The notes under the pieces were generated by a model that worked only from the letters and a program-made list of their open reading frames with translations, made no database searches and had not been told where the DNA came from. A DNA stretch of 64,000 nt from Candidatus Heimdallarchaeota archaeon (lineage in GTDB: Archaea; Asgardarchaeota; Heimdallarchaeia; Heimdallarchaeales; Heimdallarchaeaceae): positions 64,001 to 128,000 of the forward strand of contig JAUVXV010000001.1 in NCBI GenBank assembly GCA_030603365.1, given 5' to 3'. Shown piece after piece: positions 60,573 to 63,988 of this stretch. Position numbers and translations under genes: made by a program. The first letter of the stretch is position 1. Each line of letters begins with the position of its first letter.

Positions 60573-61658
60573 ATGGGTGGAATACGAAGACAAAGAAAGA
60601 AAATTATGACTCCTGGTCATCCTTATGATAAAATTCGTATTGATCAGGAATTACCTTTAGTTGGAGAATACGGTTTAAGAAACAAAAAAGAACTGTGGAA
60701 AGCAAGAACTGTTCTATCTAAGGCTAGACAACAAGCTCGTGCTTTACTTGCACTTCCAGCAGATGTGAGAAAGCAACGAGAAAACGAATTACTATTTCGT
60801 TTAGCTAATCTTGGTGTGCTTCCTCCAGGTAGCGACCTTGACTCTGTTCTAGCGCTAGAGGTTCGTACTGTGTTGAATAGACGACTGCAAACCATAGTGT
60901 TTAGAAAAGGGCTCGCAAGTTCGCCTTATCAAGCAAGACAGTTTATTGCGCATAGACATATTGCTATTGAAAGAGCTGTTGTTACCTCTCCAGGACGTCT
61001 TATTAAAATCAATGAAGAAGAAAATATTGACTATGCTCCCCTATCTCCTATGCTAGAGAAATCACATCCTGCTAGACCTCAAGCACCTCCTGTTAGTGAT
61101 GAAGTGCCTCTTGAGAAGAAGGAAGTTCCTAAGAAGGAAGCTCCTAAACCCGAAGTTAAACCAGCTAAACCTGTTCCTAAGAAGGAAGTTGAAGCTCCTA
61201 AACCCGAAGTTAAACCAGCTAAACCTGTTCCTAAGAAAGAAGCTCCTAAACCTGAAGTTAAACCAGGCAAACCTGTTCCTAAGAAAGAAGCTCCTAAACC
61301 TGAAGTTAAACCAGGCAAACCTGTTCCTAAGAAGGAAGTTGAAGCTCCTAAACCTGAAGTTAAACCAGCTAAACCTGTTCCTAAGAAGGAAGTTGAAGCT
61401 CCTAAACCCGAAGTTAAAGCTGAACCTAAACCTCCAGCTAAACCTAAGGTTTCCAAAGTGGATGTTTCTGAAATAAAAGGCGTTGGAGCTAAAACTGCTA
61501 TGCTTTTGAAAGAGAATGGTTTTGATACTGTTAATAAAATTGCTTCTTCTTCTGACGAAGCTTTATCTAAAGTTCCAGGCATCGGTCCTGCTACTGCTAA
61601 AGCTATGATTAGTGAAGCAAAGAACATTCTGACCAAAGCTAAGGAGAAATCCAAGTAG
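60573..61658 (+). CDS. rps4: 30S ribosomal protein S4 fused to Pro/Lys repeat linker and C-terminal HhH domain
   Basis: [29 protein letters not shown]; C-terminal IKGVG.KTA...VPGIG.ATA. Confidence 0.95.
61125..61418 (+). repeat. 48/54-bp coding tandem repeat x~6 (VPKKE[VE]APKPEVKP[A/G]KP) in rps4
   Basis: Near-identical nucleotide units. Confidence 0.95.
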
Positions 61659-61666
61659 GTGATTGT

Positions 61667-62341
61667 ATGAGTGAAGAAAAAGCTAAAACTAAACAAGAAG
61701 AAAAGAAGGAAGCAAAGCCGGATAAGAAGTCAGATAAGAAGTCAGATAAGAAAGCTGACGCTAAAGAAGACAAGAAAACTGACGCTAAAGAAGACAAGAA
61801 AACTGACGCTAAAGAAGACAAGAAAACTGATACTAAAGAAGACAAGAAAACTGACGCTAAAGAAGACAAGAAAACTGAAGCTAAAGAGGAAACAAAGCCA
61901 GAAACAACAAGAGAAGATTCTAGAAGATCAGAAGCAAGATCTCGAACCTCTAGAAGAGACTCTAAATATGGTGTCGCTCACATCTTTTCCAGTTACAACG
62001 ATACAATCGTTCATATCACCGATATCTCAGGCGCAGAAACATTCAGCCGTAAAAGCGGAGGAATGTTTGTGAAAGCTGACAGAAATGAGTCCAGCCCATA
62101 CGCAGCAATGAAAGCAGCAAACGCAGCAGCAATGGAAGCACAAAGTAAAGGAGTGTACCAACTGTATGTGAGATATAGGGCACCAGGAGGACATAAAAAT
62201 AGAACTCCAGGACCAGGAACACAAGCAGCACTAAGAGCACTGAAAAGATCAGGAATGAGAATACTAAGACTAGAAGACGTGACCCCACTTCCTCATGATG
62301 GGTGTAGGAGGAAGGGGGGCAGACGTGGTCGTCGAATGTAA
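61667..62341 (+). CDS. rps11: 30S ribosomal protein S11 with charged-repeat N-terminal extension
   Basis: [48 protein letters not shown]. Confidence 0.96.
61721..61887 (+). repeat. 12-bp (DKKS) and 24-bp (DAKEDKKT x5) coding tandem repeats in rps11
   Basis: GATAAGAAGTCA and GACGCTAAAGAAGACAAGAAAACT units. Confidence 0.95.
62283..62319. promoter_or_regulatory. Predicted zinc-finger binding/target site within rps11 3' end (inverted pair GAGGAAG(T/G)GGGG, 13-bp spacer)
   Basis: Minus strand 62283-62306 = TAC ACC CAT CAT GAG GAA GTG GGG matches decoded helices of the two downstream C2H2 proteins; plus strand 62308-62319 = GAG GAA GGG GGG. Confidence 0.7.
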
Positions 62342-62342
62342 T

Positions 62343-62380
62343 CTCTCCTTTTTTATTTCTTTTTTCATTTTCATTTTTGT
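62343..62380 (+). terminator. Archaeal oligo-T terminator after rps11
   Basis: Several T4-T7 runs directly after the stop codon. Confidence 0.6.
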
Positions 62381-62429
62381 ATTATTTGAGTTTATAATCT
62401 AATTTCTGTATTGAATGAATGAATATTAG

Positions 62430-62816
62430 ATGAATAGTGATTCAGAAACCATATTACATGTCTGTGACATTTGTCAGAAATCTTTCAAGCGGAGATATTA
62501 CTTGAATAGGCACATTGATGCTGTACATGAAAATCAAAAGGTTTTTAGATGCTCATATTGTAATTTTCAGACTTCAAGGAAAGATGCTTTGGATAGACAT
62601 GTTAATCAAATCCATATAACAAGCAGAGTTCATAAATGCAAAAAATGCGGGGAAACATTCAAGCAAATAGGAAATCTCTATAGACACACCAATACTGTGC
62701 ATACAACTGAAAAGAGATTTCAATGTAAAGACTGTTTTTCTTCTTTCTCAAGAAAAGATAATCTAGAGAGACACATAAAGAAATTTCACACATCAACCAT
62801 ATCAGAGGAATATTGA
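62430..62816 (+). CDS. 4x C2H2 zinc-finger protein, no effector domain
   Basis: Four C-x2-C-x12-H-x4-H fingers; helices RRYYLNR, RKDALDR, QIGNLYR, RKDNLER. Confidence 0.93.
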   Translation: MNSDSETILHVCDICQKSFKRRYYLNRHIDAVHENQKVFRCSYCNFQTSRKDALDRHVNQIHITSRVHKCKKCGETFKQIGNLYRHTNTVHTTEKRFQCKDCFSSFSRKDNLERHIKKFHTSTISEEY

Positions 62817-63988
62817 GTATGAGCTCCTCTACGAAATCTAGTTTTGAATGTGAAATTTGTGGAAAAATACTCTCGAGAAAAGATTTACTTACACGTCATA
62901 TTAAGTCTGTACATCAAAAAATTAAATATCCATGTCCTGAATGCTCCTATGTTGCTAACAGACAAGATTATCTAAAACGTCATATGAATGAAGTGCATCT
63001 TAACCTTCGTTCTTATGTTTGTGAGTTCTGTGGGATGAAGTTTAATCAATCTGGAACTATGAACAGACATATAACAACAGTTCATAAGAAAGAGAGAAAT
63101 TATAACTGCCCTGAATGTGAACCTGTTTTTTCTCGTAAGGATCAGCTTCAAAGACACATAAGAGCTGTCCATCTAAATCTTCGACCTTATATCTGTAAAG
63201 AGTGCGGTGCCTCCTTTAAGTTACCCAACCATTTGAAGCAACATCACATATCTATCCACACTAACCAACGTAAATATGTCTGTGAGGAATGTGGTTTTGC
63301 ATTTAAGTTATCACAGCATCTTAACGATCATATCAAGGTTGTTCATCAAAATCATCGTCCTTACGTGTGTGAAGAATGTGATGCTTCTTTTCCCCATGCT
63401 CGTAATCTTAAGTTACACATCATTGCTGTGCATACTGATGAGAAACCTTACGTTTGTGAAGATTGTGGTAGAGGTTTTGCTGATCCTAGTCATTTATATA
63501 AGCATAAACAAGCTGAAGCTTGTTGGTTTACAACTACTACTGCTTACAAATGGGAGGAACTCTGTAAAGAGATAGCAGAGGTTTTACTAGCTGATGAAGA
63601 TTGGAAGTGGAAACCTAAGATAGACACTCCTGAGCTAAAGAAACAGAGCTGGATTCAGCCTGAAATAATTGTATACTACGAAAATAATACGAAAAGAATC
63701 ATTGATGCTAAGAGATCTACTCAAGCGATATTCAAGGAGAAGGATCTGGTAGTATATCCAAAAGTGGCTGAGAAAGTGGAGTTCTGGTGCCTCTATGGTA
63801 AAACTGAGGGAATGTTTGATGAAAAGGAGGAGATGGAGGCTAAGGGTAGTGAGGAGATTATTGCAGAGTTGAAGAAAAGGAAGAATAAAAGGAATAAGAA
63901 TTTGATTGGCAATCTGATAATGAAGGTTGAGATGCTAAAGAAAGGATTAGAATTCAAAGGACAGAGATTACTTATTGATTCTTCCTAA
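62813..63988 (+). CDS. 8x C2H2 zinc-finger array fused to PD-(D/E)xK-like nuclease domain (natural ZFN candidate)
   Basis: Seven C2H2 + one C2HC fingers with canonical-type linkers (TDEKPY, NLRPY); C-terminal KWEELCKEI...IQPEIIV...IIDAKRS; start overlaps upstream stop (TTGA). Confidence 0.85.
   Translation: MSMSSSTKSSFECEICGKILSRKDLLTRHIKSVHQKIKYPCPECSYVANRQDYLKRHMNEVHLNLRSYVCEFCGMKFNQSGTMNRHITTVHKKERNYNCPECEPVFSRKDQLQRHIRAVHLNLRPYICKECGASFKLPNHLKQHHISIHTNQRKYVCEECGFAFKLSQHLNDHIKVVHQNHRPYVCEECDASFPHARNLKLHIIAVHTDEKPYVCEDCGRGFADPSHLYKHKQAEACWFTTTTAYKWEELCKEIAEVLLADEDWKWKPKIDTPELKKQSWIQPEIIVYYENNTKRIIDAKRSTQAIFKEKDLVVYPKVAEKVEFWCLYGKTEGMFDEKEEMEAKGSEEIIAELKKRKNKRNKNLIGNLIMKVEMLKKGLEFKGQRLLIDSS

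Follow-up and report, generated by a model that had tools for sequence, protein, structure and literature searches.

An inverted repeat at the 3′ end of a Heimdallarchaeal rps11 gene pairs a predicted zinc-finger site with a near-cognate copy that may be incidental

Engineered zinc-finger nucleases consist of Zif268-type C2H2 arrays joined to the FokI cleavage domain, and they use paired half-sites with 5-7 bp spacers. In fingers of the Zif268 type, helix positions 6, 3 and -1 specify the 5′, middle and 3′ bases of a triplet, respectively; an Ala at helix position +3 makes a contact of little specificity. The R2 retrotransposon protein, which targets the ribosomal RNA gene, has N-terminal C2H2/Myb motifs together with a restriction-like endonuclease domain. 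The 3′ end of a host gene can be replaced by mobile-ORF or free-standing homing endonuclease elements, of which that in Allomyces mitochondrial atp6 is an example. In Asgard archaea, Tn7-like elements have TniQ target selectors that carry C2H2 zinc fingers (bioRxiv 10.1101/2025.07.27.667033). These TniQ proteins are the sole published case found of C2H2 arrays used in this manner by an archaeal mobile element, and a literature search showed no natural C2H2-nuclease described in archaea.

The DNA analyzed here is a 64,000 nt stretch (the window) of a contig from a Candidatus Heimdallarchaeota archaeon, the genome of which (G000) is 3.65 Mb in length. An inverted repeat is found at the end of the rps11 gene, and genes for two C2H2 zinc-finger proteins follow downstream, here called the cassette. 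The two arms of the repeat are 12 nt each, left CCCCACTTCCTC (62283-62294) and right GAGGAAGGGGGG (62308-62319), and are 11/12 complementary (92%) across a 13-nt spacer. Both are inside the uS11 coding sequence, within the final 20 codons of rps11. The features of the locus are as follows.

61667-62341, plus strand: rps11 (uS11) coding sequence, PF00411, with a tail peptide that starts EDVTPLPH(D/N).
62283-62294, minus strand: left arm, predicted cognate site of the 4-finger protein, GAG GAA GTG GGG, read by fingers 4 to 1 in the 5′ to 3′ direction.
62283-62306, minus strand: predicted register of the 8-finger protein, placed by the recognition code, with a skeleton that fits the invariant helix positions.
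62295-62307, no strand: spacer of 13 nt with His, Asp, Gly and Cys codons, mostly beneath fingers 5-8 if the 8-finger array is in the left-arm register.
62308-62319, plus strand: right arm, near-cognate copy GAG GAA GGG GGG, formed with the silent G of AGG, AGG, AAG and GGG.
62309-62375, plus strand: mosaic patch, consisting of the "block C" tail and the T-rich terminator region (P ~4e-4 in both directions).
62312-62341, plus strand: repeated rps11 end, Lys through stop codon, with "orphan" copies downstream of the cassette.
62376-62405, plus strand: promoter-like element of putative function from a genus-wide alignment; it precedes the finger genes and contains the TATA-like TTTATAAT at 62391-62398.
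62430-62816, plus strand: 4-finger C2H2 protein with no other domain; helices RRYYLNR, RKDALDR, QIGNLYR and RKDNLER.
62819-63988, plus strand: 8-finger C2H2 protein with a predicted C-terminal PD-(D/E)xK-fold domain at 63524-63985 (154 residues).

The codons through the repeat are acc cca ctt cct cat gat ggg tgt agg agg aag ggg ggc. An earlier note on this DNA had described an 11/12 inverted repeat with a 13-bp spacer, and these are the arms found at 62283-62294 and 62308-62319. Its statement that four consecutive G-ending codons (AGG AGG AAG GGG) occur in an AT-rich genome is also borne out, with 33% GC and genome codon shares of 0.11 for AGG, 0.26 for AAG and 0.11 for GGG. The tail-to-tail geometry that it described holds as well, with the spacer flanked by the two finger-4 ends. 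Across the genus, the uS11 tail peptide does not change and its silent sites vary widely. Oligo-T tracts are found 3′ of the rps11 stop codon. The 30-nt intergenic element at 62376-62405 is near-invariant in the genus, whereas the sequence right after the rps11 stop codon varies, and judged by this sequence pattern the element is probably the cassette promoter. It should be noted that the ribosomal proteins encoded here have unusual extensions. uS11 displays an N-terminal extension of ~95 residues (61667-61960) made of Lys/Asp/Glu-rich tandem repeats with DKKTDAKE units ahead of the conserved S11 domain, and uS4 (60573-61658) is joined to a helix-hairpin-helix module (PF01479 and PF14520) by ~120 residues made of Pro/Lys-rich repeats.

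Species genomes of the genus (25 in number) were used for comparison; the rps11 end is fully assembled in 22. Finger genes are present directly 3′ of rps11 in 20 of the 22, and also in G010, the tail of which was not parsed. Nine of these 20 have the 8-finger gene only and 11 have a small 4- or 5-finger gene, which is followed by the 8-finger gene in 10 of the 11; in G019 the contig ends after the small gene. The finger genes are absent in G003, in G018 and in other genera of the order.

The 4-finger gene starts 135 nt downstream of the left arm. A simplified canonical code, fixed beforehand, was used to scan each small array on the 69-nt rps11 tail of its own species. The best site in each of the 11 small-finger species is in the same minus-strand register, equivalent to 62283-62294, and in G000 the left arm matches the 4-finger protein at 11/11 specified bases. 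Matches per species (n=11) are 11/11, 12/12, 14/14, 12/15, 14/14, 12/12, 11/12, 13/14, 13/13, 12/12 and 14/14. The part read by fingers 1 to 4 has 0-1 mismatch in every one of the 11 species, and the fifth finger of G007 adds two (12/15 overall). The middle base of each left-arm triplet is the silent third base of a Thr, Pro, Leu or Pro (and His) codon. Because this register places silent third bases mid-triplet while the outer bases are fixed by the protein sequence, the small arrays track the silent spelling of the gene. In a cross-matrix of arrays and alleles, the own allele is the row maximum every time, and 48 of 49 specified silent (middle) positions match in the left-arm register. With six independent specificity classes there are 4 total mismatches vs a permuted mean of 21.2, and none of 200000 shuffles is as good. 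Site and recognition helices at the left arm co-vary across the relatives, and the left arm is a well-supported candidate for the cognate site of the 4-finger protein, which would read the silent third bases of the resident Thr-Pro-Leu-Pro codons. A homologue search with the 4-finger protein as query returned no candidate.

The right arm matches the 4-finger protein at 10/11 specified bases, with G in place of T opposite Ala +3 of finger 2. The primary sites of G017 and G007 are not free of code mismatch either, thus a one-mismatch site is within the range of presumably functional sites. The 4-finger protein may bind the right arm weakly.

The exact right arm is found in only one of 21 congeners (G021), and a one-off version, with 9/11 of the motif, is in G024. 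It is also present in the G021-like locus L067, one of 7 loci from a metagenome scan. G021 and L067 have the 8-finger gene only and no small protein, and the fingers of G024 differ in specificity from those of G000. The closest relative, G023 (91% in the rps11 body, 74% in the small protein), has the same predicted specificity and reads GCGCAAAGGTGG at the place of the right arm. In the 10 other small-finger species, no second site with 2 or fewer mismatches was found from -400 to +2300 nt of the rps11 stop codon (2.7 kb). Thus the right arm is present in one of 11 species with a small finger protein, and site and helices do not co-vary. From the common allele GAGAAAGGGTGG of 5 species, two silent changes suffice to reach the right arm. 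The exact-arm species G000 and G021 are two of the three whose arrays fit the arm within one mismatch (the small array of G000, fingers 1-4 of G021), with a post hoc P of ~0.01-0.03.

On balance the repeat probably consists of one real zinc-finger site beside an accidental look-alike, the right arm being an incidental near-cognate site. The earlier note had reasoned that the same codons in cassette-free relatives would speak against a second site. The codons differ in cassette-free G003 and G018, and by this comparison the proposal is not refuted; however the G-ending codons do not track finger specificity in G021, L067 and G024, so the comparison in spirit goes against it.

How surprising the repeat appears depends on the null model. 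As a generic repeat it is not beyond chance: 4 inverted repeats of equal quality are observed in the window vs 9.1 +/- 3.6 in Markov simulations. Among G+C-rich inverted repeats of such quality in the window it stands alone, with 0 expected. In a codon null, the fixed peptide was resampled with synonymous codons according to genome codon usage; the probability of 11/12 or more pairs is then 5e-6, and that of a right arm with at least 10/11 of the finger motif is 4e-4. In the 3.65 Mb genome GAGGAAGTGGGG has only 2 exact and 7 one-mismatch copies, and two of these nine are the two arms. The other seven near-matches are all within unrelated coding sequences, and thus there is no regulon.

A portion of the pairing is set by the protein itself. 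The invariant peptide dictates four of the 12 pairs, as codon positions 1-2 of Thr/Pro/Leu/Pro are antisense to codon positions 1-2 of Gly/Gly/Lys/Arg. This peptide antisense symmetry, whereby the Pro, Leu, Pro and Thr codons reverse-complement those of Arg, Lys, Gly and Gly, gives the same GNG-GNA-GNG-GNG skeleton on both strands.

In 21 relatives, complementarity in the same register is 5-9 of 12 pairs. This bears on a possible function at the RNA level, i.e., a hairpin in the rps11 mRNA that acts on 3′-end stability, termination or ribosome pausing. The predicted stem has -19.2 kcal/mol with a z-score of -1.85, and the oligo-T tracts after the stop codon would fit such a role. However the pairing varies among the relatives as given above, the overall folding energy of the tail does not stand out from that of the relatives, and the hairpin ends 22 nt of coding sequence before the stop codon with no T-run directly after the stem. 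A role as RNA hairpin is thereby very improbable; as a conserved mRNA hairpin or terminator, the repeat was rejected on the lack of maintained pairing and on the 22 coding nt between stem and stop codon. Most relatives have a different hairpin, which spans the rps11 stop codon and is followed by a T-run, and this hairpin is absent in G000.

The protein-fixed skeleton of the 8-finger register is (T/G)RC ANC CRT YRT GNG GNA RNG GNG. An alternative plus-strand placement on GGT GGC CGT AGA was tried and rejected, with only fingers 5-8 fitting. When the variable +3 residues of the 8-finger arrays are compared with the resident silent bases, 31 of 136 match, vs an average of 45 for other alleles. 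By the code, the resident allele of G000 is mismatched to its own 8-finger array at 6/7 specified silent positions. No target allele of the 8-finger arrays was found among the 22 sampled rps11 tails, where the best fits are at 4-6 of 6-8 silent positions, and thus the 8-finger target is predicted from the register only.

The C-terminal domain of the 8-finger protein has 61-75% column-wise identity across the genus. E11, P46 and K63 do not vary among paralogues with 34-44% identity, and either acidic residue occurs at positions 47 (E or D) and 61 (D or E). The E...P(E/D)...(D/E)xK pattern is a PD-(D/E)xK signature with conservative swaps. A first structure model based on 18 sequences had a pLDDT of 59.5 and no fold match. 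With six distant paralogues added, a second model attained a pLDDT of 78 and a pTM of 0.74, the other 4/5 models being of low confidence. Nearly all Foldseek matches of this model (E-values 1e-3 to 1e-1) are to nucleases of the restriction type. In VIA-align, Z is 9.9 for AF1548, 8.2-8.5 for Can1/Can2, 7.7 for R.BspD6I and 7.0 for the FokI cleavage domain, the last with an rmsd of 3.2 over 108 residues. Pfam and PDB sequence searches with the C-terminal domain showed nothing above threshold, and an Atlas search gave weak leads only, to PD-(D/E)xK families. Motif and fold matches together thus support a restriction-endonuclease-like fold in the modeled domain, which is a putative nuclease.

R2 retrotransposon chains are also found among the Foldseek matches of the domain model (63524-63985), with E-values of 2.5e-3 to 3e-2. 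Outside of the window, at G000:C3:42593-44206, a paralogue of the domain is fused to five "EWHPTKN...CPYC" zinc-ribbon repeats and has no C2H2 fingers, and similar nuclease-fold paralogues are present in G013, G012, G008, G050 and G070. Thus the same effector domain travels with different DNA-binding arrays. A second complete gene with a C2H2 array and the nuclease fold is found away from rps11 at G012:C175:18406-19506.

The host gene end is duplicated around the cassette, with the old end left downstream. The repeat unit extends from Lys/Gly-Gly through the rps11 stop codon and includes terminator-like sequence. In G000 the orphan copies are beyond the window end, at window-equivalent positions 66649-66675 and 69719-69745 (G000:C1:130649 and 133719). 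One of the two is ancestral-type and the other decayed, with unrelated cargo between them (a TPR protein, a YaaC-like protein and unknowns). Two bracketing orphan copies point to at least two nested insertions at the same point. After the second copy is the gene that in cassette-free G018 is second downstream of rps11, past one intervening ORF. The resident tail of G000 and the orphan repeat show 18/27 identity. In G012 the orphan copy is 27/27 identical, and decayed copies are found in G009, G008, G013, G005 and the metagenome contig L064; orphan tails were not found in G021, G006 and G023 (6-8 kb examined in G021 and G006).

The left boundary of the direct repeat is at ~62311/62312, within the right arm and 5 nt past the end of the predicted 8-finger footprint (62306). 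Judged by its position, this boundary would be the insertion or cleavage junction, good to within 2-3 nt. With this boundary, the cut position that the earlier note had predicted gains support that is independent, albeit indirect.

Inverted arms that adjoin an insertion junction could represent a recombinase core site, or the paired half-sites of a dimeric 8-finger nuclease. However the junction falls in an arm and outside of the spacer, which has a length of 13 nt, other species with the same direct repeats do not have the inverted repeat, and no integrase or transposase gene is found between the repeats, where the genes code for the TPR protein, the YaaC-like protein and unknowns. Two 8-finger footprints would also overlap, and a site of either kind is scarcely credible. 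A tyrosine-recombinase core or Tn7 attachment site was rejected in view of the junction inside the right arm, the absence of recombinase or TnsABC-TniQ genes and the absence of a TniQ domain. Half-sites for a dimeric nuclease were likewise rejected: a dimer on the two arms is sterically excluded by the overlap of the footprints (62283-62306 vs 62296-62319) and the 13-bp spacer, and the 4-finger protein has fingers only. The reading of the arms as a dimer's half-sites like those of engineered nucleases, offered in the earlier note, fails on the same grounds, with a spacer of 13 bp and not 5-7, a 4-finger protein that has no cleavage domain, and overlapping footprints.

The 3′ end of rps11 in G000 is a mosaic. 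The last 39 nt are 95% identical to G021, 92% to G024 and 72% to G023, and both flanks of the patch are closest to G023, i.e., the upstream 300 nt of rps11 (91%) and the promoter-like region downstream. The patch is ~36-65 nt in length, starts 3 nt or less from the junction and spans the same gene-end-plus-terminator unit that is repeated downstream. Another ~10 substitutions in the patch have no bearing on the site. In the last 10 codons nearly all silent sites depart from the ancestral-type tail, the form kept in cassette-free species and in the orphan copy of G000 itself. Most cassette-bearing species retain the ancestral tail, and a second, distinct recoded tail is present in G006 and G015. 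In ancestral-type tails (e.g., L053, L052 and L054) the sequence for G-R-R-G-R-R is an exact tandem of two copies of GGCCGTAGA, which creates the palindrome GGCCGTAGAGGCC; this palindrome has been lost by recoding in G000, G021 and G024 and separately in G006 and G015.

The right arm as an accidental look-alike may be explained by this exchange together with the antisense symmetry in the peptide. G000 would have taken on a recoded rps11 end, "block C", which is common to non-sister species and in which all four silent positions happen to be G. The arm would be located on the junction because the exchangeable gene-end module begins at the junction, and it would be neither selected nor required in the cassette. 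Among the small-finger species the right arm is seen only in G000, and its origin as by-product of an imported gene-end variant is likelier than selection for a second site.

It should also be considered that the recoded gene end was selected for a reason unrelated to the 4-finger protein, with the repeat again incidental. Recoding might make the cleavage region a poor substrate for the zinc-finger nuclease, or the lower identity to the orphan repeat (18/27) might guard against loss of the cassette by recombination. The change of nearly all silent sites of the last 10 codons from the ancestral-type, the different recoded tail in G006 and G015, and a patch that starts within 3 nt of the junction are in agreement with such selection. 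On the other hand the ancestral tail is found in most cassette-bearing species, the repeat of G012 is identical at 27/27, and no orphan copy is present within 6-8 kb in G021 or G006. Since orphan tails were not found in G021, G006 and G023, the idea that recoding prevents recombination is supported in G000 only, and selection of this kind is unlikely.

A functional right arm was likewise evaluated. Two 4-finger molecules would be tail-to-tail in G000 as a "double shield" that brackets the 8-finger footprint, one on the sub-site of fingers 1-4 of the nuclease and the other on the junction. The resident rps11 allele would thereby be more strongly protected, or the pair would serve as operator of the cassette promoter, which is 75-110 nt downstream. 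A G-ending tail variant, once imported, would then have been retained for the site that it created, in a species-specific arms race with zinc-finger nucleases over silent spelling. In its favor, the 10/11 match has its one mismatch at the Ala +3 contact of low specificity, the direct-repeat boundary (5 nt past the 8-finger footprint) falls within the arm, few copies of the motif exist in the genome, codon usage makes the arm improbable, and modeling supports a nuclease fold in the partner protein. However the arm is present in one of 11 small-finger species; G023, with the same specificity, is without it, and G021 and L067 have the arm and no small protein. The small protein also shows no evident dimerization or effector domain, and in the resident allele 6/7 specified silent positions already disagree with the 8-finger array of G000. 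A functional pair of this type is rather unlikely. The second docking site over the scissile region that the earlier note had suggested thus stands as a 10/11 copy on the junction, next to the gene for a partner with a predicted nuclease fold, but not as a feature of the system, with 0/10 other species having it. Counted against the preferred reading of the right arm as a by-product are the codon-usage improbability of 4e-4, the occurrence of two of nine genomic sites 13 bp apart at this one locus, the location of the arm, tail-to-tail, on the inferred junction, the code mismatch that the G017 and G007 primary sites show as well, and the post hoc coincidence (P ~0.01-0.03) of the exact arm with fitting arrays in G000 and G021.

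In this Heimdall (Asgard) genus, eukaryote-type C2H2 arrays at the rps11 end have variable +3 residues that are aligned, by the predicted registers, to the silent third bases of eight consecutive codons. Two proteins are involved: the nuclease-free one has a near-perfect fit to the host silent spelling in every species that has it, and the one with the restriction fold is tuned away from that spelling. The repeat marks the start of an exchangeable gene-end module. Were the right arm bound, G000 would offer a natural setting in which to see how a finger "guard" protects a cleavage site; if it is unbound, the arm would serve as an internal control, a one-base variant 13 bp from the cognate site, for the specificity of a natural archaeal array. 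The second site itself is probably a side effect, and the system that surrounds it is unusual.

A comparison with known systems shows partial similarities to each. The R2 protein also joins zinc-finger targeting to a PD-(D/E)xK-type endonuclease domain; however the rps11 cassette has no reverse transcriptase and is a DNA cassette in an archaeon, and only the folds are alike. Among published systems, the nearest parallel is with the C2H2 arrays of the Asgard Tn7-like TniQ proteins, where eukaryote-like C2H2 arrays similarly pick a site in or near a host gene for an archaeal mobile element (bioRxiv 10.1101/2025.07.27.667033). The rps11 proteins differ in that they have no TniQ domain, no TnsA/B/C genes are found between the repeats, and the effector has a predicted nuclease fold and is not a transposase recruiter.

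Similarity to engineered zinc-finger nucleases includes the modular C2H2 arrays with 3 bp per finger, the predicted restriction-fold C-terminal domain with a FokI match, the tail-to-tail arms and a putative junction ~5 bp beyond the last finger. The rps11 system differs in being natural and in having a 13-bp spacer, and its nuclease domain is unlike FokI in sequence, with no sequence match in Pfam or PDB. Moreover the 4-finger protein, which fits both arms, lacks a nuclease domain, and the right arm is imperfect and not conserved. As in mobile-ORF elements, a cassette with an endonuclease-like ORF is situated in the 3′ end of an essential gene, supplies a new end and leaves the old one as a downstream orphan. 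In contrast to these elements, recognition would be through a C2H2 array that follows the silent bases, the resident allele is matched by a paralogue that has no nuclease domain, and homing and cleavage are putative. By analogy, the architecture may thus be likened to an engineered zinc-finger nuclease combined with the mobile-ORF elements that replace the 3′ end of a gene.
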